A program made the translations under genes and the position numbers. 64,000 bases of DNA from IMG/VR virus record IMGVR_UViG_3300045988_119069; one strand, 5' to 3'. This stretch comes from a virus. A model generated the notes under the pieces. It saw only the letters and a list, made by a program, of their open reading frames with translations. It was not told the DNA's origin and searched no databases. This document shows, one piece after another, positions 1,211 to 39,614 of this stretch. Numbering within the stretch: position 1 is the stretch's first letter; each line of letters starts with the position of its first letter.

Positions 1211-1810
1211 TCAGTTAAACCATTTCACAGTCGTCTCGCCCTTATATCCTTTCTCCCATACAAACCAGGCGTAAGCCGCAGCGCTGCTTCCGCACTTGTC
1301 GAAGTCTCCATTCATAGCGCATTTCAGTCGCGACGAACTTACCCAAACGCGAATGGGGGGGGAAGAACGGAAGAGAGCGCGTCGGGCCTTGCCTTCGAGG
1401 AAAGTCAGCTTCAGAAACATCGCCACCTTCTTTCCTTTGGGAATGATGTTCAGAGCCTTCTCCACAAACTGCTGCGCGAATTTGTAGGGAGGATTGGTAA
1501 CGATGTCTCCGTCCCACGCCAAATTATCAATAGCGAGGAAGTCAGCCACCTCGCCGTAGCCTCTATCCACAAGGTCGCGGCTCACCACCTCATACCCTGC
1601 TGCCTTCAGCACCTCGCTCATGTGACCCTCGCCACACGACGGCTCAAGAATCCTTCTCTCAAATTGTTCCAGCTTGCACAGCCATTCCGTCGCCTTCGGT
1701 TCTGTGGCATAGTAATCCTCCCGCTGCCTATCCGCATCCGTATGGTTGCTTGCGCCCAATGTCTTGAACACAGCAGCCGAGCCACCTACCCAGTCCTTAG
1801 CCATTGTCAT
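1211..1810 (-). CDS. N6-adenine DNA methyltransferase (NPPY class)
   Basis: Motif I-like EPSCGEG and motif IV TNPPY in the 199-aa product. Confidence 0.8.
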   Translation of the reverse strand: MTMAKDWVGGSAAVFKTLGASNHTDADRQREDYYATEPKATEWLCKLEQFERRILEPSCGEGHMSEVLKAAGYEVVSRDLVDRGYGEVADFLAIDNLAWDGDIVTNPPYKFAQQFVEKALNIIPKGKKVAMFLKLTFLEGKARRALFRSSPPIRVWVSSSRLKCAMNGDFDKCGSSAAAYAWFVWEKGYKGETTVKWFN

Positions 1811-29765: not shown

Positions 29766-30257
29766 ATGAGAACATTCAAATTCAGAGGCAAGTGTACAGA
29801 TCCTAAGTACGATGGCAAAACGGCATGTGGCTCGCTGCTTTCTTTCCCCAATGGAGAGACAAAGATTTTTGAGCACGACCACGACAAGACGTTCAACTAT
29901 TTCGGTGTTGACCCCGCGACCGTCTGCCAGTTCACCGGTTTCCTTGATAAGAACGGCAAGGAGATTTATGAAGGCGACGTGTTGCGGTCAGACGAATATC
30001 CTTATAGCTGCATCGGAGATAAAAAGCGCGACAACTATTATGCCGTAGTTTATTACTGTGAGGAAGGAGCTTGCTTTGGCACTGTGACGGCCAAGAACCC
30101 CAGTTCTGACGTAGGAGGCATTTCAGACGGCATACTTGATGATGTAGAGCGAGAGAAAATGAAGACCTTCGAGGTTGTCGGCAATATCTATGACCCCGAA
30201 TGGCGACAATATAGTGAGTATTTTCAAGAGGAAGATAAGGAGGAAAGCGATGATTAA
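29766..30257 (+). CDS. YopX-family protein
   Basis: VCQFTGFLDKNGKEIYEGDVL and C-terminal EVVGNIYDPEW, typical of YopX. Confidence 0.7.
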   Translation: MRTFKFRGKCTDPKYDGKTACGSLLSFPNGETKIFEHDHDKTFNYFGVDPATVCQFTGFLDKNGKEIYEGDVLRSDEYPYSCIGDKKRDNYYAVVYYCEEGACFGTVTAKNPSSDVGGISDGILDDVEREKMKTFEVVGNIYDPEWRQYSEYFQEEDKEESDD

Positions 30258-30715: not shown

Positions 30716-31279
30716 ATGAAAGCAAAAAACAAGGTACTGCTTGACAGATACGACCTTTACTTTAGAGGTGTTTGGAAGAAACCCTACAACTATCCATCGC
30801 TGTTAGATATAGTACAGCGTCGCATAGGATGGAGGGCTGACGTACTTCGTTGTTGTGACAACTGGGAAGAGATTGTTTCTATTGACCGCAAAGCGCTTTC
30901 CAACTTTTGCGACCCGAAGGTGTTCCATTTCCCGAAAAAGCGGCGTGTGCCTCCTGAAGTTTTTGACCCGAGGTATTCGATGCAAAATGAATATCACATC
31001 GTAAGGAAGAAAAACAATCGGTATAAGATTGTTCTGAATAAGCCCAAAAGACGTTCCGTTGGAAGAACCTTGGTGGTAGATACAAAGAGAGGTTATATCC
31101 GTGAGATTGGCGACAAGGTGTGGTATCATCCAGATTGGATGGATTTCGGTTGTGAGACCTGTGCTGACTTCGGAACTTGTCGGTCTGGTTATCACGACAA
31201 GAGTTTTTGTATGGTGGCTGCAAAGTGTGGAATCGGTCGCTGTAACACATGGCTGGAAGTAAGAGAAAACAATGACTGA
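30716..31279 (+). CDS. hypothetical Cys-rich protein
   Basis: 187 aa. Its stop overlaps the start of the next mini-ORF (ATGACTGA). Confidence 0.5.
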   Translation: MKAKNKVLLDRYDLYFRGVWKKPYNYPSLLDIVQRRIGWRADVLRCCDNWEEIVSIDRKALSNFCDPKVFHFPKKRRVPPEVFDPRYSMQNEYHIVRKKNNRYKIVLNKPKRRSVGRTLVVDTKRGYIREIGDKVWYHPDWMDFGCETCADFGTCRSGYHDKSFCMVAAKCGIGRCNTWLEVRENND

Positions 31280-31526
31280 CCCTCACTACAAGCGCGGCAC
31301 CATCCGCAAGGATGGCAAGCTGTATGGCCGCTATCCCGACGGCTCGCTCTACCGCATCTACTCCACCGACCGACCGTTTCTTCAGTTGGTGGACCGAGAG
31401 GGCGAGACGTTCCTTCGCATACGCCAAGCCACCGAGCAGGGCTACACCGACTGTCCCTGCCCTGGAGCCGCCGACCTAAGTTATCCGTCCTCGGCTCTAA
31501 GGCGCAGTCGCACAGTCGGGGGGTAA
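31272..31526 (+). CDS. TRD-like fragment 1 of a C5-methyltransferase, truncated at a G6 tract (alternative end 31584)
   Basis: ...IRQATEQGYTDCPCPGAADLSYPSSALRRSRTVGG* resembles the ATKKGY...SKTRRGRVG TRD type. Removing one G from 31518-31523 extends it to ...GGKLVNALTAASSGICVFVEL*. Confidence 0.55.
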   Translation: MTDPHYKRGTIRKDGKLYGRYPDGSLYRIYSTDRPFLQLVDREGETFLRIRQATEQGYTDCPCPGAADLSYPSSALRRSRTVGG

Positions 31527-31599
31527 GCTCGTAAACGCGCTGACCGCTGCAAGTAGCGGAATCTGCGTTTTTGTTGAATTATAAAAGGAGAAATAAATT

Positions 31600-31971
31600 A
31601 TGATTATAACGAATGATTGGCGGCTCTGGCTCGCATCAATGTTGTTTACGTTTGTCGTAACAATTTTGTTCATGGCTTACATTTGGTGGACAGAGCGAAA
31701 ACCAAAGAAAGAGATAAAAAATGATAGAGAAATAGACTATCAGAATTGTGATGCGTATTTCTTGTGTGTGTTTACCAAAAGTGGTGGATGCGATTTGCAC
31801 AGAGCCTCGGAGATCAAGCAGGTTGTTTCATCTGTGAATAAAGATTATATCAACGTAATAACGGTCGATGGTGATGTAACGCATTATGAAAATGTCATAT
31901 CGTATGAGTTCAAACACGTTTTAGATTTGTCCTTGTATAATTTGAATACAGTAAAAAGAGTAGCTAAATAG
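31600..31971 (+). CDS. hypothetical membrane protein
   Basis: N-terminal TM segment WRLWLASMLFTFVVTILFMAYIWW. 123 aa. Ends in TAG. Confidence 0.5.
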   Translation: MIITNDWRLWLASMLFTFVVTILFMAYIWWTERKPKKEIKNDREIDYQNCDAYFLCVFTKSGGCDLHRASEIKQVVSSVNKDYINVITVDGDVTHYENVISYEFKHVLDLSLYNLNTVKRVAK

Positions 31972-32027
31972 GCTTGTAGAACATTTAATTAATAAAATTT
32001 ATAAAAAGAGAAAAACGACTGCCCGAC

Positions 32028-32372
32028 GTGCTGTTAATGTCGGATAAAGCATCTACCTTAATGTCAAACTCAACCAAGGACGCTTGCATCTGCGTCGAAT
32101 CTGACGAACAAAGTGTAAGTTTTAAGGACGAACCGTCGGAAGGTGTAACGATGGATATTACAGCCGAGTATCGCAACATCGTTCAGTTGTGGCACCCTGC
32201 CACAGAAAAGCCTTATTGCATAGGTCAACTTCTCTGTTGGTGTCACGACGGAAAATTCTTCGTACACAACCATTACAGCCATGACGATGAAAATTGGCAT
32301 TTATTCATCAGCACTAACAACATAAAGCGTTATTGCTATATTTCCAATTTGGAACCCGAATGGTTCATTTGA
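32028..32372 (+). CDS. hypothetical protein
   Basis: 114-aa ORF directly followed by mini-ORF A. Confidence 0.45.
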   Translation: MLLMSDKASTLMSNSTKDACICVESDEQSVSFKDEPSEGVTMDITAEYRNIVQLWHPATEKPYCIGQLLCWCHDGKFFVHNHYSHDDENWHLFISTNNIKRYCYISNLEPEWFI

Positions 32373-32373
32373 T

Positions 32374-32505
32374 ATGACTGACATTAAGATTTCCGTGCAT
32401 CCCGTTAGCCATCGGCTCGAATGGCGAGGATGGGGTGATTTCTCGCCCTCCCTTCGAGCCACCGACTACAAATGCCCACACTGTATAATGATTGAATATG
32501 ACTAA
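32374..32505 (+). CDS. TRD-like mini-ORF A (43 aa)
   Basis: MTDIKISVHPVSHRLEWRGWGDFSPSLRATDYKCPHCIMIEYD*. Below the track cutoff. SLRATDYK..IMIEYD resembles the distal TRD segment of C5-MTases. Confidence 0.55.
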   Translation: MTDIKISVHPVSHRLEWRGWGDFSPSLRATDYKCPHCIMIEYD

Positions 32506-32629
32506 TCTTGACTTCTACCAATATCCTCGTGGCAATAACGATGGAGGTAAATTAGACACTGACGTTTGCCCGACCGTGACAATCAACTCGTGGCAGCAAA
32601 ATGTATTTCTGATTGAAGAATATGAATAA
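32498..32629 (+). CDS. TRD-like mini-ORF B (43 aa)
   Basis: MTNLDFYQYPRGNNDGGKLDTDVCPTVTINSWQQNVFLIEEYE*. Its start lies inside the junction TATGACTAA of ORF A. Confidence 0.55.
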   Translation: MTNLDFYQYPRGNNDGGKLDTDVCPTVTINSWQQNVFLIEEYE

Positions 32630-32774
32630 CATCACAATAGACTACCACGCTCATGCTATATCGAGCATTTATTGGAATGTTTCGCCTGACTATAAAAGAC
32701 CTCCGTTAGTAGGTATTAATAGATGTGTCAAGACCGATACTCATGCTCCTGGAATTTTGATAGAATACAAATAA
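32622..32774 (+). CDS. TRD-like mini-ORF C (50 aa)
   Basis: MNNITIDYHAHAISSIYWNVSPDYKRPPLVGINRCVKTDTHAPGILIEYK*. Its start lies inside the junction TATGAATAA of ORF B. Confidence 0.5.
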   Translation: MNNITIDYHAHAISSIYWNVSPDYKRPPLVGINRCVKTDTHAPGILIEYK

Positions 32775-32784
32775 CAGCAACAAT

Positions 32785-34110
32785 ATGATCACAAAACTAA
32801 ATTTCACCGACCGCACCATCAAGAGCTATGCCATCCGCAAGCTCACACCCAAGGAGTGTTTTCGCTTGATGGGCGTTCGCGACAACGTAATCGGCACGAT
32901 GCAGAGCAGCAATGCTCAAGCAGCCGAACGTCTGCCCGACTGGAAGGGCAAGGGTAAACCCGAAGACATGGCTATATCTGCCTCACAGCAGTACAAGCAA
33001 GCTGGAAACAGTATTTGTATAGATGTGTTAGCATATCTATATCAAAATCTTTTCTACCCCGCTCCACCCAAGCCTCGCCCCGGCAAGCAGCTCACTCTCT
33101 TCGACGCCCCCGAAGATACCCTGCCCGCCCTGCCGCCCACCGCCGACAAGAACGAAGAGAAGATATTCCTCACCACGTTCTCCGGCTACGACTCGCAGCT
33201 CATGGCAGCCGACGTGCTACGCGAGTGGCATCCCGACTTTCGATGGACATGCGTAGGATGGAGCGACATCGACAAATACGCCTGTCAGATGCACAACCTC
33301 GTCTTCCCTCAGTTTGCCGACTGCGCCCTGGGCGACATCACCAAGATTGACTGGCACGAGGTGGAAAGCTCGCTCGAAGGCCGCGAAGTGGACCTCTTCA
33401 CCTATTCCTCGCCTTGCCAGGACATCAGTCAGGCGGGCAAGCAAATGGGCTTGCAGGAGGGCAGCGACACCCGAAGCGCACTGCTTTGGCGTGTGGCGGA
33501 TGCCGTGGAGGTGCTTCGCCCGAAGTATCTCTTGCAGGAGAACGTGGCGGCACTGGTAAGCCAGAAGTTCTTGCCAGACTTTCAGAAGTGGCTCGACAAA
33601 CTCTCGTCGCTCGGCTATGTGAGCCGTTGGACGCGACTCAACGCCAAGAACTACGGTGTGCCCCAAAACCGCGACCGTGTGTTCTGCCTCTCCATGCGCC
33701 GAGACGTAGCCTTCGACTATCAGTTTCCCGAACCCTTCGAGCTGCTTACCCGATTGGAAGACGTGCTCGAAGAGGAAGTGTCCGACCGCTATTTCCTCAA
33801 GGACGATGCCGTGAGCAAGTTCCTCAAGGCAAACGACTCTGACAATGCCTTATTCCTTCAATTCGACCTGCCACCGACACATGAGGCGGCAATGTTCCTC
33901 AAGACCGTGCTTCAGATATTCATGGAGCGTCACGACGGATGGGACAAGGGCATTGAGTGGAACGAGAAAGAACTGAGCTATCATCGCCCAGCCATCGCCC
34001 ATCTCTACGAAAAGTTCAAGGAGAACCCAAAGAAACTGGACGTGGAATATTGGCGCGGTTTTTATGGAATGTTTAAGGAGAATATGGAGAGGAAGAAGGA
34101 TGAAAAATAA
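32785..34110 (+). CDS. circularly permuted DNA (cytosine-5)-methyltransferase catalytic core lacking an obvious TRD
   Basis: Motif order: IX RKLTPKECFRLMG, X QYKQAGNSICIDV, Pro-rich linker, I TTFSGYDSQ, IV YSSPCQDISQAG, VI LLQENV, VIII VPQNRDRVF. Confidence 0.85.
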   Translation: MITKLNFTDRTIKSYAIRKLTPKECFRLMGVRDNVIGTMQSSNAQAAERLPDWKGKGKPEDMAISASQQYKQAGNSICIDVLAYLYQNLFYPAPPKPRPGKQLTLFDAPEDTLPALPPTADKNEEKIFLTTFSGYDSQLMAADVLREWHPDFRWTCVGWSDIDKYACQMHNLVFPQFADCALGDITKIDWHEVESSLEGREVDLFTYSSPCQDISQAGKQMGLQEGSDTRSALLWRVADAVEVLRPKYLLQENVAALVSQKFLPDFQKWLDKLSSLGYVSRWTRLNAKNYGVPQNRDRVFCLSMRRDVAFDYQFPEPFELLTRLEDVLEEEVSDRYFLKDDAVSKFLKANDSDNALFLQFDLPPTHEAAMFLKTVLQIFMERHDGWDKGIEWNEKELSYHRPAIAHLYEKFKENPKKLDVEYWRGFYGMFKENMERKKDEK

Positions 34111-34246
34111 ACCGTTTCATGCTATTCAAAATGGGGGGGGTACGATTGCACCTGCAATCACCTCCCACTATTTCAAAGCCGGTGTGCGAGATTTCTTGTT
34201 TGCGCTCGCCATACCGCATTGCTGTTTAATAGTAGAATATGATTGA
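34100..34246 (+). CDS. TRD-like mini-ORF D (48 aa) containing a G8 tract
   Basis: MKNKPFHAIQNGGGTIAPAITSHYFKAGVRDFLFALAIPHCCLIVEYD*. The start overlaps the core stop region (GATGAAAAATAA). G8 at 34133-34140. Confidence 0.55.
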   Translation: MKNKPFHAIQNGGGTIAPAITSHYFKAGVRDFLFALAIPHCCLIVEYD

Positions 34247-34376
34247 AAAGATTGGCAACATTTATTACGACAAGTGGAAGTCCGGTTTTGATGGCAACAT
34301 CTGCGGCACTAAAGGAATATACCCCACCCTAACCTTGTCAACACAAACGGGGGAAGTACTGATTGAATATGCTTAG
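34239..34376 (+). CDS. TRD-like mini-ORF E (45 aa)
   Basis: MIEKIGNIYYDKWKSGFDGNICGTKGIYPTLTLSTQTGEVLIEYA*. Has the PTLT signature. Ends in TAG. Confidence 0.55.
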   Translation: MIEKIGNIYYDKWKSGFDGNICGTKGIYPTLTLSTQTGEVLIEYA

Positions 34377-34521
34377 CAACCCTCGTCCCCTCGTCCTCGG
34401 CTCCTACAGCCCCTCGCAGAACGGCATCATCGTGTCACCACACGGCATAGCCCTGTGCATAGTCGGGGGAGGTAAGGGTCACGACGTGGATAAACCGAAA
34501 ATATTGATAGAGTATGATTAA
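34369..34521 (+). CDS. TRD-like mini-ORF F (50 aa)
   Basis: MLSNPRPLVLGSYSPSQNGIIVSPHGIALCIVGGGKGHDVDKPKILIEYD*. Confidence 0.5.
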   Translation: MLSNPRPLVLGSYSPSQNGIIVSPHGIALCIVGGGKGHDVDKPKILIEYD

Positions 34522-34533
34522 AGACAATCTCCT

Positions 34534-34707
34534 ATGCTACACTTTCGCATAGCAGCCTTCCGAGGCCGTGACCCCGACAATCCGTCCGACCGCAAGCATC
34601 CCTCCAACGGACGCTTCTGTCAGCGAATGGAGATAAACTGGGGGAGTACAACCAACACTCTCACCTCAGTAGGCAAAGACAACATGGTATATCTGGAATA
34701 TGAATAG
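34534..34707 (+). CDS. TRD-like mini-ORF G (57 aa)
   Basis: MLHFRIAAFRGRDPDNPSDRKHPSNGRFCQRMEINWGSTTNTLTSVGKDNMVYLEYE*. Matches the RGR..NP.D....Q.LE....NTLT...KDN TRD pattern. Ends in TAG. Confidence 0.6.
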   Translation: MLHFRIAAFRGRDPDNPSDRKHPSNGRFCQRMEINWGSTTNTLTSVGKDNMVYLEYE

Positions 34708-34849
34708 ACAAATCTCTTTCGTGCAACGCACATCAAAGCTCTGCCCACGTCGGGGGTACTCCACGGCATTGTCCGCACGCTACGACGGATGGGCAGGACT
34801 CTACGACGAGCACGGACAGCACACCATTGTATTGATAGAATATGAATAG
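34700..34849 (+). CDS. TRD-like mini-ORF H (49 aa)
   Basis: MNRQISFVQRTSKLCPRRGYSTALSARYDGWAGLYDEHGQHTIVLIEYE*. Ends in TAG. Confidence 0.5.
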   Translation: MNRQISFVQRTSKLCPRRGYSTALSARYDGWAGLYDEHGQHTIVLIEYE

Positions 34850-34982
34850 GCATACACTAAATTGTCCGTCCGGCATCTGCTGCGTCCTGACATCCCATTA
34901 CGCAAGAGAAGGATGGGCGAATATGGCAAGCAATACAACATCACAATGCAAAGCACCTGCAGTATTGATAGAATATGAATAA
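34842..34982 (+). CDS. TRD-like mini-ORF I (46 aa)
   Basis: MNRHTLNCPSGICCVLTSHYAREGWANMASNTTSQCKAPAVLIEYE*. Confidence 0.5.
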   Translation: MNRHTLNCPSGICCVLTSHYAREGWANMASNTTSQCKAPAVLIEYE

Positions 34983-35002
34983 CAATTTAAAATAGAGACA
35001 TT

Positions 35003-35812
35003 ATGAGTCAAAAAGAAACAAGAAGCATCCCTAAAACGGGAGCAAAAACTTTCGAGAATGAGAAACTATCAGCCTTTCTCCACAGTCTGCCTAAAGGAGC
35101 TATGCTTTATTCGCCTTTGTTAGGCTACATGACGGTGTATGACATCAACGAATCGGGCGTTGTGATGGCCCTTCCTAATCCTGTCGAGAATGAACCATAC
35201 GATTGGCCTTTCCTTTACAACGGACGTATAGCGCGCTACGACAAAGGAGAGTGTATGCTGTTTCTCTCGCATCTTTACCGGAGTTGGAATGTGCTCAAAT
35301 TCCAGCTGGGTGACATCGTGGCAATGGACATCAAGTATAAAGATGGCAACATTCTGACCTACATTGTGATTTTCAGCGAAGTGGAATCTACTGATTATCC
35401 CAAGATAAGGACATACGCCTGCTTATGCAAAAACAGCGACGTGCTTACTTCTTACGCTCTGCTTGATCTTCGCGGTACACGCGAAGAAGAAGAAAGCATC
35501 GAACTGAGATACGCTACGCCTACGGAAGAAAAACTTCTCAATAATGCCGTGGAGAAAATCGGGAAAAGATGGGACAAGGTAAAGCAGCGTCTTGTGTCAT
35601 TAGATTCTGAAGCTCACACTCCCGAGCAGCTGCGCGAGGATTTCAACGCCTTACAGGAAGAATACTATCGCTTGTGTGAACATTGCAAGAAGTTAGAGAA
35701 TGAGCGTAACGATTTCCAAAAGAAAGCAGAGTTAGAGTCAGGTAGAATACAGGAAATATTATACAAGGCTATCGAACAAGTAGGGCAGAGTAAACTACAG
35801 ACCGATGACTGA
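35003..35812 (+). CDS. hypothetical protein with a C-terminal coiled coil
   Basis: 269 aa. Its stop overlaps the next mini-ORF start (ATGACTGA). Confidence 0.55.
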   Translation: MSQKETRSIPKTGAKTFENEKLSAFLHSLPKGAMLYSPLLGYMTVYDINESGVVMALPNPVENEPYDWPFLYNGRIARYDKGECMLFLSHLYRSWNVLKFQLGDIVAMDIKYKDGNILTYIVIFSEVESTDYPKIRTYACLCKNSDVLTSYALLDLRGTREEEESIELRYATPTEEKLLNNAVEKIGKRWDKVKQRLVSLDSEAHTPEQLREDFNALQEEYYRLCEHCKKLENERNDFQKKAELESGRIQEILYKAIEQVGQSKLQTDD

Positions 35813-35984
35813 CAAGTATTACATCGGATGGGTACGCAGCGGCAAGGACGGCAAGGACCTCGTAAAGAGCCGACCGCGCAAGCAGATAGCCAATACCGTG
35901 ACAACCTCACCGCCAGGCTGCTTTGCCGACCCTTGCGACGGGCTTGGCAACACCACACCGCATATAGTATATAAATTTGAATAA
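35805..35984 (+). CDS. TRD-like mini-ORF J (59 aa)
   Basis: MTDKYYIGWVRSGKDGKDLVKSRPRKQIANTVTTSPPGCFADPCDGLGNTTPHIVYKFE*. Confidence 0.5.
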   Translation: MTDKYYIGWVRSGKDGKDLVKSRPRKQIANTVTTSPPGCFADPCDGLGNTTPHIVYKFE

Positions 35985-35987
35985 GAT

Positions 35988-36158
35988 ATGAAGCTAAGAA
36001 TTGTTCCAATGGAAGCCTACAACGGTTGCATACCCGTGACCGTTTGGATGGTTCAGAAATTTGTCGATCACTTCCCATTCGGCAAATGGGTAAACATCAA
36101 AGGATTTTCCGACAAAGAAAAGGCAGTGGCGCTAATTTCTCTGTTGTATAATATGTAA
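35988..36158 (+). CDS. hypothetical small protein (56 aa)
   Basis: MKLRIVPMEAYNGCIPVTVWMVQKFVDHFPFGKWVNIKGFSDKEKAVALISLLYNM*. Below the track cutoff. Confidence 0.4.
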   Translation: MKLRIVPMEAYNGCIPVTVWMVQKFVDHFPFGKWVNIKGFSDKEKAVALISLLYNM

Positions 36159-36175
36159 TAAAAATTATAGAGACA

Positions 36176-36745
36176 ATGAAACATCAGGAATTTAGGAATC
36201 GTATTGCCTATGCAAGGCGTTATGGAGAATTGGTAGCCGAAAATGTGGCGATGGGACAAAGAATACATCGTCTTGTCAGAGACTATAACAGGGTAGTAAA
36301 AAAACTTCGCAAGCTGGAAGACAAGCATGAGGATGTAGTAATGGAGCTGGCAAAGGAGAAGGCTGCTCACGATGAATTGGCTAAGGGTTACACCAACGTC
36401 TGCAACGCTAACATAGCGCAAGGGCGTGAGACTGACAATCTCAGAAACGTGCTTGCCAATTTGCGAAGTGAGAACGCAGACCTAAAGCAAGAGCGCAGCG
36501 ACCTTATCGACTTGCTTGAGGAAAAAGGGTTCACTCTCGTCAAGAACACCGAATGCCCTCACGATATGATAGAGACGGGGGGCCCGTTCTGCAAAGAAAA
36601 TCCCGAAACAGTAAGAGTGGATAGCTGCGCATGTTGGAATTGTGAATATTTCTGCCTCCGACTGAAGGACAGAGGCAAGATAGTTTGCAAGGAAGGACAA
36701 AAACGGAAGCAGCAAGACAATAATGCCGATGTCGCTATTGAATAA
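36176..36745 (+). CDS. coiled-coil plus Cys-rich protein (paralogue 1)
   Basis: 189 aa. N-terminal coiled coil and a C-terminal CPHD..C..CACWNCEYFC cluster. Preceded by AATATGTAATAAAAATTATAGAGACA. Confidence 0.55.
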   Translation: MKHQEFRNRIAYARRYGELVAENVAMGQRIHRLVRDYNRVVKKLRKLEDKHEDVVMELAKEKAAHDELAKGYTNVCNANIAQGRETDNLRNVLANLRSENADLKQERSDLIDLLEEKGFTLVKNTECPHDMIETGGPFCKENPETVRVDSCACWNCEYFCLRLKDRGKIVCKEGQKRKQQDNNADVAIE

Positions 36746-36777
36746 TATGTAATAAAAACTATAAAGACAATAAAACA

Positions 36778-37227
36778 ATGAAAACAGAAGAAAACAAACG
36801 CATGTTGGCTCTTTCCTATATAGTAGCCGACCTGAAGGCAGAGAACATTGAGCTTGAGCAGCGTGTACATCAGTTCATGGACGAATACAACAACGTGGAA
36901 CATCAGTTGCGAGGAATGGAAAAACGCAAGGACGAAGACCCGTCAAGGCAGACGCTCGGCGAGATGCTGAAGATGCGCGACCATTGCGACGAGCTGGAAA
37001 AGGAAAACAGGGCGCTGAAGGGCTTTGCAAAAGTAATTCATTCCTTTATGAAGGACAAGAAAATCTATATGGAAAAAGGAACGTCCTGCGGCTACATACA
37101 AGGCTCCCCTGCTGTGTGTTCTACAGCCTGTCTGGAATGCGACTCTTGCCTGGGTGTAATTGAAGAATGTGGCATAATCTGCCGACAGGTGCTTTACGGT
37201 GTGAAGGTTAGTTCCGTAAAACGATGA
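36778..37227 (+). CDS. coiled-coil plus Cys-rich protein (paralogue 2)
   Basis: 149 aa with the same architecture (CSTACLECDSC...CGIIC). Preceded by AATATGTAATAAAAACTATAAAGACA. Confidence 0.55.
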   Translation: MKTEENKRMLALSYIVADLKAENIELEQRVHQFMDEYNNVEHQLRGMEKRKDEDPSRQTLGEMLKMRDHCDELEKENRALKGFAKVIHSFMKDKKIYMEKGTSCGYIQGSPAVCSTACLECDSCLGVIEECGIICRQVLYGVKVSSVKR

Positions 37228-37388
37228 CCGACACCACACGCCCCCTCGTAGTCGGCATGATGCAGACCCCACCCTTTACGCACATGTTTGATGTGCTGCG
37301 TCGTGTGTATTCTGCCCGAGACCTATGCCCTGCTTGTCTTGTACCTACAGGAGGCAATCAAGAGATAAAAGTTTTAGTGGAACTATAA
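37224..37388 (+). CDS. TRD-like mini-ORF K (54 aa)
   Basis: MTDTTRPLVVGMMQTPPFTHMFDVLRRVYSARDLCPACLVPTGGNQEIKVLVEL*. Compare the M.HhaI-type RIYSTRGIAITLSAYGGG...YLV (from memory). Confidence 0.55.
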   Translation: MTDTTRPLVVGMMQTPPFTHMFDVLRRVYSARDLCPACLVPTGGNQEIKVLVEL

Positions 37389-37841: not shown

Positions 37842-38195
37842 ATGATACAGCATCAACACTGGGAAGACTCCACTCGCATACTCATTACCGACGAGCAGCA
37901 TCAAGGCAGCATACAGGCGTTCATTCCTAATCGTGCCGAAGACAGACCTTTGGATGGCGAAGCGGATGCTCTCATCTACTCGCTGTGGGTGGACGAAGTT
38001 CACCGCGGTCGTGAGGTGGCAAAGCACCTGATGGAGACAGTAGAAAAAGAGCTGAAGTATTACGGCGTAGAGACCGTCGCAATTTCGTGGGACGGACGCG
38101 ACTCTCCTCAGTGGGTGTTGCATTGGTACGAAAAGCTGGGTTACGAGGGGAAGGCGTTAGGCAATCAATGCTGCACGCTTCTCAAACGGCTGTGA
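37842..38195 (+). CDS. GNAT-family N-acetyltransferase (small)
   Basis: LWVDEVHRGREVAKHLMETVEKELKYYGVETV fits the acetyl-CoA-binding motif A region. Confidence 0.55.
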   Translation: MIQHQHWEDSTRILITDEQHQGSIQAFIPNRAEDRPLDGEADALIYSLWVDEVHRGREVAKHLMETVEKELKYYGVETVAISWDGRDSPQWVLHWYEKLGYEGKALGNQCCTLLKRL

Positions 38196-38438: not shown

Positions 38439-39614
38439 ATGAGTGACTTAAAGATTTTTGCAAAGACCATCGAACCTGAAGTCCAGGAGCAAGTAAGAAA
38501 GATGGCAGAGAGCGAGGCTTACCGCGACTGTAAGATTCGTATTATGCCCGATTGTCATGCCGGAAAGGGATGCACCGTAGGCACCGTGATTGAAACCCGT
38601 GGCAAGGTGGTGCCCAACACAGTAGGTGTGGATATAGGCTGTGGTATGTTGGTATTCAAGTTCGCTGAGAAGGATATTAACCTTTCGCTTCTCGACCGAA
38701 TCATCAATGAGTCGGTGCCGAGCGGATTTGACGTTCACGAAAAGTCCAAGCTAAAAGTTATGAGTCCGCTTACGTCACATCTTTTGCTCGATTTGCACGA
38801 AAGGACACAAGGTTGCTTCGACCCCGACTATATCGGACGCTCGCTTGGCACCCTCGGTGGCGGCAATCACTTCATCGAGCTTGACGAGGACGAGCAGGGC
38901 TGTAAGTATCTTGTGATACATTCGGGCAGTCGCAATCTCGGAGTTAAGGTGTGCAATTTTTTCCAACACTTAGCCAAGAAGAATGTGAATCGTAGTGAGG
39001 AGCGCAAGCGCATCATCGAAGACTTGAAGAAGTACGGCTTAGAGAGGGAGATTAACAATGCGTTGCGTCGTTTGGGCACCGTGCCTCCCGATCTCGCCTA
39101 TCTTGAGGGAGAAGACCTCGATGCCTATAATTTCGCAGCGAACGTCTGTCAGTGTTTTGCCGACGACAACAGATGGGATATAGCAATGACTATAATCCAT
39201 GGGCTTCAATTATCGTTCGTGGATTTCTTTACCACCAGGCATAACTATTTCGACATACACTCAGGCATCATCCGAAAAGGAGCCGTGTGTGCCGAAAATG
39301 GCGAACAGCTTATCATCCCACTTAATATGCGCGACGGTTCGTTGATCTGTCGCGGCAAGGGCAACGACGACTGGCTTCAGTCAGCTCCGCATGGTGCTGG
39401 CAGACTGATGTCGCGCTCGGCGGCAAAGAAGCAGCTCAGCATGGAGGAATACCGCCAGCAAATGCACGACATCTACTCCACATCGGTATGCGAGTCCACC
39501 ATAGACGAAGCACCAATGGCGTATAAGTCGGCAGAGGAGATAGAAGAACTGATAGGCGACACTGTGGATGTGGTGAAGCGCATCAAGCCGATATATAACT
39601 TTAAGGCAAAGTAA
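38439..39614 (+). CDS. rtcB: RtcB-type RNA 3'-phosphate ligase
   Basis: MPDCHAGKG, VGVDIGCGM, GGGNHFIELD, IHSGSRNLG and SAPHGAGR motifs. Confidence 0.9.
   Translation: MSDLKIFAKTIEPEVQEQVRKMAESEAYRDCKIRIMPDCHAGKGCTVGTVIETRGKVVPNTVGVDIGCGMLVFKFAEKDINLSLLDRIINESVPSGFDVHEKSKLKVMSPLTSHLLLDLHERTQGCFDPDYIGRSLGTLGGGNHFIELDEDEQGCKYLVIHSGSRNLGVKVCNFFQHLAKKNVNRSEERKRIIEDLKKYGLEREINNALRRLGTVPPDLAYLEGEDLDAYNFAANVCQCFADDNRWDIAMTIIHGLQLSFVDFFTTRHNYFDIHSGIIRKGAVCAENGEQLIIPLNMRDGSLICRGKGNDDWLQSAPHGAGRLMSRSAAKKQLSMEEYRQQMHDIYSTSVCESTIDEAPMAYKSAEEIEELIGDTVDVVKRIKPIYNFKAK

Follow-up and report, generated by a model that had tools for sequence, protein, structure and literature searches.

How does a phage DNA methyltransferase recognise its target sites when its own gene encodes no target recognition domain (TRD)? 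This question is raised by a locus in IMG/VR virus record IMGVR_UViG_3300045988_119069, of which a stretch of 64,000 nucleotides (nt), here called the window, was analysed. In this locus a single gene for a circularly permuted C5-cytosine methyltransferase (C5-MTase), referred to as the core, is surrounded by 12 TRD-type minigenes encoding 43-105 amino acids (aa). Nine of these, the mini-open reading frames (mini-ORFs) A to I (43-57 aa), flank the core, A, B and C lying upstream and D to I downstream. The other three, designated o31272, o35805 and o37224, are the subject of this study. A first-pass annotation had described them as TRD-like; all three are present where it placed them, on the plus strand, and all begin with MTD. 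Its total of 12 units also stands, and is joined by a 12-codon remnant of a thirteenth (Table 1). On the sequence evidence we consider it rather probable that the TRD-less core is programmed in trans by free TRD peptides and that each unit is individually phase-variable.

TRD-type minigenes around a circularly permuted core

The motifs of the core protein are arranged as RKLTP (motif IX) at residue 18, GNS (X) at 74, FSGYD (I) at 132, PCQ (IV) at 210, ENV (VI) at 252 and QNRDR (VIII) at 294. This order, IX-X followed by I-VIII, is that of a circularly permuted C5-MTase. The protein begins 17 residues before motif IX, with no N-terminal TRD in the same chain, and motif inspection and Pfam analysis revealed no recognisable TRD in it; its tail of about 90 aa after motif VIII had no Pfam match. 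Relatives were collected by a core-based scan, which yielded 80 IMG/VR loci whose cores are 69-94% identical and whose phage contigs measure about 45-110 kb; the presence of each minigene family per locus was called by tblastn. The core was intact and free of frameshifts in 81 of 81 loci. Other core relatives (P0344, P0352 and similar proteins, 255-261 aa) start at motif I and are devoid of motifs IX-X, a hint that enzymes of this family are split in nature in yet another way.

Pfam searches with each unit alone gave no match for any of them; the relation to TRDs is supported by other comparisons. When the o37224 family was compared by tblastn with 50,697 phage records, almost only annotated C5-MTases were matched, among them the multispecific ones of Bacillus phages H2, phi3T and SPbeta. 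In M.H2I the matching segment (aa 325-352, KRVYSPDGVSPTLTTMGGGHREPKIAVE) is situated well past motif VIII (158) and has at its end the ...VEY strand that is also seen in the minigenes. Both o37224 and unit F align to the M.H2I TRD at aa 322-353, including the terminal ...KIAVEY strand. Nearly all of the mini-ORFs A to I share the C-terminus (I/L)(I/V)EY(E/D/K/A), and the unit C-terminus (I/L)(I/V)EY(E/D) agrees with the end of the H2 enzyme TRD (...PKIAVEY). Using hhalign, the o37224 family was linked to the array units c55 (92%), E and F (Table 1), against a background in which none of 264 TRD-versus-control comparisons reached 20%. In a PDB profile search with o37224 the best methyltransferase matches were M.HhaI 239-257 and the TRD loops of M.MpeI, with an E value of only about 1; a PDB sequence search with the single o37224 protein found nothing, and PDB profile searches with the other two profiles (A2, A3) found nothing relevant.

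The o31272 family, with its reading frame repaired (see below), matched 103 Streptococcus phage records in a tblastn search of 2.3 Gb of phage DNA, with E values down to 9e-4. In nearly all listed cases the matches lie in annotated cytosine methyltransferases. The match in the C5-MTase of Streptococcus phage Javan123 covers aa 281-356, a stretch flanked by motifs VIII (159) and IX (about 365), and the unit resembles the last TRD of the Streptococcus phage methyltransferases. For o35805, the TRD assignment rests on natural fusions and on context. A profile search of 1.84 billion representatives retrieved P0291 (375 aa, E 3.4e-6), in which an o35805-type unit is fused in frame before IRRLTPRE (motif IX), followed by X and I-VIII. 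Six close relatives of this protein (P0307-P0312) as well as P0316 (427 aa, 439 member sequences) have the same TRD-core layout. In these natural fusions the o35805-type units thus hold the TRD position relative to the conserved motifs, and the order TRD-IX-X-I..VIII is shared with M.BssHII and other known permuted enzymes (PMC5944983). When P0291 was modelled with AlphaFold, the core was predicted with confidence (mean predicted local distance difference test score, pLDDT, 79.5), and the best structural matches of the model are M.MpeI, M.HhaI and M.HaeIII. A further protein, P0256 (124 aa), is a tandem fusion of a 35805-type unit and a unit of the ...TKDNYLIQVYE type. The o31272 and o35805 families were not linked to other unit families by hhalign, which we ascribe to the TRDs being too divergent. 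Taken together, these comparisons, in which similarity to methyltransferase TRDs was indeed found, support the predicted membership of all three ORFs in the TRD minigene set.

Some candidates were discarded on the way. A grappling-hook protein retrieved with profile A2 and the proteins P0247 and P0272 retrieved with the o35805 profile were summed weak matches to long repetitive proteins (P0247 was seen to be repetitive). A combined alignment (A7), by which the TRD portion of a fusion model was to gain depth, mis-aligned the short units.

The three ORFs are genuine conserved genes under purifying selection. The o31272 family was found in 59 of the 80 loci, the o35805 family in 56 and the o37224 family in 45. 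The adjoining genes, called unrelated in the first description, are rarer, that at 30716-31279 being present in 14 loci and that at 35003-35812 in 12 (tblastn). Pairwise Nei-Gojobori ratios of non-synonymous to synonymous substitution (dN/dS), calculated with our own script, were 0.11 for o31272, 0.25 for o35805 and 0.27 for o37224; the same method gave 0.10-0.23 for the core-array units F, H and B. Among 5.8 billion proteins searched, stand-alone homologues formed 286 clusters of about 105 aa for o31272 and 266 clusters of 55-61 aa for o35805, each of constant length. Their named sources are Caudoviricetes or Alloprevotella, and a 95% identical copy was noted on a contig binned as Prevotella sp. 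The phage is a gut phage, probably of Prevotella; megablast of the region against GenBank phages gave no match.

In the window the three ORFs are separated from the core by unrelated genes, as first described, but in relatives o31272 and o35805 usually abut other units. Of 58 cases in the o31272 family, 41 have another TRD unit as their upstream neighbour, as have 42 of 67 in the o35805 family, the latter usually being the last unit of the downstream array, and the o37224 family more often follows a non-TRD gene (24/36). Since unit order is largely collinear across loci and the neighbours in relatives are units, the dispersal in the window stems mainly from variable accessory genes between conserved units. 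The suggestion that the TRD cassettes are mobile is not borne out by this order, rearranged or duplicated units being confined to a few loci. In L068 (8012-9160) a 31272-type unit and unit B are found on the downstream side of the core, in L007 a 35805-type unit (7793) stands between F and G, L011 has two 35805-type copies (8250 and 10313), and L070 is the fourth such locus.

The start codons of all three ORFs overlap the upstream TGA, as had been noticed. At 31272 and 35805 the ATG begins 5 nt before the TGA, giving an 8-nt overlap (ATGACTGA), and at 37224 the overlap is 4 nt (ATGA). The TGA upstream of unit A ends at 32372 and its ATG begins at 32374, without overlap, in agreement with the earlier description. 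The 9-mer ATGACYGAC occurs five times in the window (1.04 expected; none of 100 shuffles reached five), and four of the five occurrences are starts of TRD-type units; beyond the 9-mer no similarity was found among these sites. The sequence ATGAC(T/C)GA had been described at the junctions of the three dispersed units with the stops of unrelated genes. It is special neither to these units nor to such junctions and proved to be one form of a general design, as a start of the form ATGAnTRR (ATGACTGA, ATGAATAA, ATGAATAG, ATGATTGA and others) was found in nearly all of about 22 unit families. The unit starts overlap the upstream ORF, usually another unit, by 8 or 4 nt, and most mini-ORFs begin within the last codons of the preceding unit. 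The N-terminal MTD is the ATGACTGAC version of this box; it is kept in 27 of 51 members of the o31272 family and 20 of 62 of the o35805 family, and not in the o37224 family (3/30). Because the box contains a stop in both other frames, any upstream frame ends within the start. Such starts over stops (ATGA or ATGnnTRR) are those of coupled overlapping genes and, as the first-pass annotation proposed, the overlaps suggest translational coupling along the operon.

Poly-G tracts and the reading frame of the units

ORF 31272 had been described as ending in ...RRSRTVGG. The ORF exists, but this is not the end of the gene. In relatives the homologue has 105 aa and ends in ...TVGGGKLVNALTAASGGICVFVEL. 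The G6 tract of the window, which in relatives is mostly G8, shifts the frame, with the result that a stop is reached at 31526; 19 further codons (KLVNALTAASSGICVFVEL), undamaged but in the next frame, carry the unit to 31584. What had been delimited as ORF 31272 is thus an OFF allele produced by a frameshift. The uninterrupted o31272 tracts found among relatives were G5, G6, G7, G8 (the commonest, in frame), G9 and G11, and all interrupted tracts were in frame.

Frameshifts between relatives were also found in A (frequently, at its G tract), B, C, F, G, H and o35805 and in some copies of o37224, nearly all within G6-G11 tracts that encode Gly-Gly-Gly. Runs of six or more G or C are concentrated in the arrays on both sides of the core. 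About 159 distinct tracts were counted in the units of 81 loci, 96 of which were out of frame (OFF) and 63 in frame (ON), as judged by a C-terminus pattern of our own definition. Every OFF allele could be converted to a full-length unit with the canonical C-terminus by a change of tract length alone. As a control, the core was inspected; it has G7/G8 tracts in 15 loci, yet was frameshifted in 0 of 81. The tracts are maintained against the codon bias of the genome. GGG accounts for 18% of glycine codons in the units, against 4% both in 22 large genes and in small control genes, and GGGGGG was found at 113 of 600 Gly-Gly pairs in units versus 0 of 51 elsewhere.

Near-identical loci allowed individual tracts to be compared. 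One relative (L085) matches the window at 100% identity along 5469 nt. Another, from a different study (L086), has 0 mismatches in 3881 nt and differs solely by G7 instead of G6 in o31272, and a third (L084) has 0 mismatches in 7372 nt, with G10 instead of G8 in unit D as the sole difference. In the window, o31272 is OFF (G6) and unit D is ON (G8). The 84-aa product of the G6 allele is indexed in 29 collection blocks from several studies, the gene directly downstream in 230. An exact-flank scan of IMG/VR for further unit D tract variants found none. We read these differences between assemblies as slipped-strand phase variation of individual units. Elsewhere in the window, a second, unrelated DNA methyltransferase-like ORF (1211-1810, minus strand, 199 aa, NPPY motif) has an in-frame C8 run on its coding side, within the codons for SSPPIRV (on the plus strand G8, 1355-1362), and three of the four G/C runs of at least six in the window lie in methylation genes.

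Proposed assembly in trans and its alternatives

In the mechanism that we propose, each TRD module would be translated separately from its own ATG in the ATGAnTRR box, translation probably being coupled along the operon. The free TRD peptide would dock non-covalently at the usual place of a TRD, beside the N-terminal motif IX of the core. One core could then methylate as many motifs as there are TRDs expressed, each unit presumably bringing a specificity of its own, and methylation of several motifs would protect the phage DNA from many host restriction systems. Slippage in the Gly-Gly-Gly poly-G tract would turn a single module OFF or ON, and the result would be a variable, multispecific protective methylation from whose switching within a population the phage may benefit. 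Assembly in trans is made plausible by the TRD-core fusions, by the ...EY strand shared with M.H2I and by the two-polypeptide enzymes M.AquI and M.EcoHK31I (PMC3404938). The latter, together with artificial fragment complementation, show that a C5-MTase can work as non-covalent pieces, including with cuts in or near the variable region (PMC3404938, PMC5944983).

Several observations weigh against this reading. Binding of a peptide of 43-105 aa to the core is something we infer from sequence. The known split C5-MTases are cut elsewhere, and their small subunit keeps conserved motifs (IX-X in M.AquI, IX in M.EcoHK31I) and is a single partner, whereas a TRD-only piece with a dozen alternatives is proposed here. 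No significant similarity of o35805 to TRDs of characterised enzymes was found in PDB profile, phage-record or hhalign searches. In chimeras of core, unit and core, PF00145 scored real and shuffled units alike (165-176 bits), and this Pfam test was consequently dropped. The TRD part of the P0291 model is of low confidence (residues 10-48 with pLDDT below 50), and the stand-alone model of the o31272 family is poor (pLDDT 52.7), too low for a fold search. The ON and OFF calls depend on our C-terminus pattern, and some of the tract-length differences, which come from assemblies, could be homopolymer errors.

This last point leads to the question whether the tract differences are artefacts of sequencing or assembly, the units being constitutive and 31272 mis-assembled. 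Homopolymers are error-prone and all data are assemblies; still, we hold this to be distinctly unlikely, as the G7/G8 tracts of the core are never accompanied by a frameshift, differences of 2 nt occur (G6 versus G8, G10 versus G8), a share of OFF tracts of about 60% far exceeds any consensus error rate, several studies contribute to the 29 index blocks that hold the G6 allele, and the markedly anomalous codon usage shows maintenance of the tracts as such. The frameshifted copies and the internally deleted remnant at 34514-34552 might also be taken to mean that the minigenes are decaying, functionless fragments of a former single multispecific methyltransferase gene. This we find scarcely credible, given that every family tested is under purifying selection, that start codons and stop-start overlaps are conserved across the 80 loci, that OFF alleles are without damage other than the tract, and that the core is intact in all loci though it would be useless without TRDs.

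Alternatively, the separate ORFs might be only apparent, programmed frameshifting or re-initiation read-through at the overlaps or poly-G tracts joining the units in cis to yield core-TRD or multi-TRD fusions. Successive units step regularly by +1 frame, each 8-nt overlap being one such step, homopolymer tracts can be slippery, and fused forms exist in nature (P0291, P0316 and the two-unit P0256). On balance joining in cis is unlikely, because no conserved slippery heptamer was seen at the junctions, whose sequences differ (ATGACTGA, ATGAATAG, ATGATTGA, ATGCTTAG), some junctions have gaps rather than overlaps, every unit retains an ATG of its own, transcriptional slippage does not usually occur at poly-G, and the interrupted, non-slippery tracts are always in frame, which fits switching at the DNA level better. 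The repeated junction sequence (GAATATGAATAR) could in turn support recombination of silent cassettes into an expression site by the core, as in hsdS shufflons or pilin variation, and rearrangements, duplications and deletions do occur occasionally; an action independent of the core, such as that of decoys against host enzymes, belongs to the same group of explanations. We regard this group as very improbable. Silent cassettes could do without an ATG and a stop of their own and without selection along their entire length, the units keep a largely fixed order, and no inverted repeats or recombinase were noticed beside the array, although no systematic search was made. Reassignment of stop codons was rejected, since TAA, TAG and TGA all serve as stops of units and each junction brings a change of frame, and so were introns or RNA splicing by the nearby RtcB, since there is no intervening sequence and RtcB fits tRNA repair.

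Surroundings of the array, relation to known systems and significance

The features of the locus are listed in Table 1. The remnant at 34514-34552 consists of the start and the end of its family, pointing to an internal deletion of the thirteenth unit, and the ATG of unit G sits in its 3' end, likewise in relatives. Upstream of o37224 lie two paralogous genes (36176-36745 and 36778-37227), each with a coiled-coil N-terminal and a Cys-rich C-terminal half, the first holding a G6 run at 36577; in many relatives the 37224-type unit is preceded by homologues of these genes. The last unit is closely followed by genes for a GNAT-type acetyltransferase (37842-38195) and an RtcB tRNA-splicing ligase (38439-39614; PHROG 1075, 2e-124). 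A tRNA ligase with methyltransferases as neighbours is also on record for gut phages of the Quimbyviridae (PMC8008677). Among the small accessory genes that precede the array is a YopX-family gene (29766-30257; PF09643 according to the annotation of the public record). A scan for promoters and terminators gave results at or below chance.

Table 1. Coordinates of the core gene, the TRD-type units and related features in the window.
Feature	Position	Strand	Remarks
o31272 TRD-type unit	31272-31584	+	105 aa in relatives; split here by frameshift
o31272, 5' part	31272-31526	+	84 aa, then stop
Poly-G tract G6	31518-31523	+	out of frame; codes for Gly-Gly-Gly before K-L-V-N-A-L-T segment
o31272, 3' part	31525-31584	+	intact, next frame
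Unit A	32374-32505	+	43 aa, end MIEYD; in 51 loci
Unit B	32498-32629	+	43 aa
Unit C	32622-32774	+	50 aa
Catalytic core, circularly permuted C5-MTase	32785-34110	+	Pfam PF00145, 3e-48
Unit D	34100-34246	+	48 aa; in-frame G8 at 34133-34140
Unit E	34239-34376	+	45 aa; hhalign versus o37224 family 86%
Unit F	34369-34521	+	50 aa; hhalign versus o37224 family 94%; aligns to H2 methyltransferase TRD
Remnant of thirteenth unit	34514-34552	+	12 codons (MIKDNLLCYTFA, then stop); family of about 60 aa in 57 relatives
Unit G	34534-34707	+	57 aa
Unit H	34700-34849	+	49 aa
Unit I	34842-34982	+	46 aa
o35805 TRD-type unit	35805-35984	+	59 aa, end IVYKFE
o37224 TRD-type unit	37224-37388	+	54 aa, end KVLVEL

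The multispecific C5-MTases of Bacillus phages (M.SPRI, M.Phi3TI, M.H2I and MtbP of SPbeta) are similar in that they are phage-borne, have several TRDs of about 40-60 aa per catalytic domain and are presumed to serve in broad anti-restriction. In those enzymes the TRDs stand in tandem in one chain between motifs VIII and IX. The window, in contrast, does not encode tandem TRDs in one polypeptide: there is one gene per TRD, each with its own ATG and stop and in differing frames, the core is circularly permuted, units lie on both sides of it, some of them past accessory genes, and many carry poly-G switches. In its order of motifs, IX-X and then I-VIII, the core resembles the permuted enzymes M.BssHII, M.Alw26I and M.Esp3I ('type H', PMC5944983), and the fused relatives P0291 and P0316 have the complete type H layout TRD-IX-X-I..VIII. 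Unlike type H enzymes, the core of the window starts just before motif IX, its N-terminal TRD having been lost to separate genes.

Bacterial phase-variable methyltransferases (Type I and Type III mod, hsdS; 'phasevarions') share with this locus that the length of a repeat within the coding sequence sets the frame and that ON and OFF alleles occur among close relatives. They differ in that the present system is phage-borne, concerns a C5-MTase and switches individual specificity modules, which would give a combinatorial set of methylated motifs. A separate specificity protein that plugs into a common methyltransferase, as proposed here, is known from HsdS of Type I restriction-modification systems; its fold and enzyme class are unrelated, and HsdS is a large protein with two TRDs and not a peptide of about 50 aa. 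Tentatively, a Type I-like two-part enzyme may be envisaged, the core of which takes any free TRD peptide of about 50 aa (12 in the window, at least 22 families in the clade), each gene having a poly-G switch; populations might thereby hedge between hosts with Type II systems, which cut unmethylated DNA, and hosts with Type IV systems, which cut methylated DNA. Searches of the full-text literature turned up no account of arrays of TRD minigenes, nor of phage methyltransferases switched by poly-G tracts. The individual elements, namely multispecificity, permutation, split enzymes and repeat-mediated phase variation, are known; their combination, TRD-only subunits especially, would be new.

In the public record of the same genome (L087) the gene calls cover three of the 12 units (ORFs of 84, 57 and 54 aa), the others having been missed; should the units work as proposed, this would show that most such minigenes escape standard gene callers. 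If the proposed mechanism is true, the enzyme would be, to our knowledge, the first C5-MTase with specificity from interchangeable, separately encoded TRD-only subunits, and nature would have provided, in the units, a collection of minimal and portable DNA-recognition modules with which cytosine methylation could be targeted by engineering. The phage would be using contingency loci of the bacterial style to vary its own epigenetic coat. The mechanism would also account for the way in which abundant gut phages of Prevotella-type hosts deal with restriction systems of great diversity.

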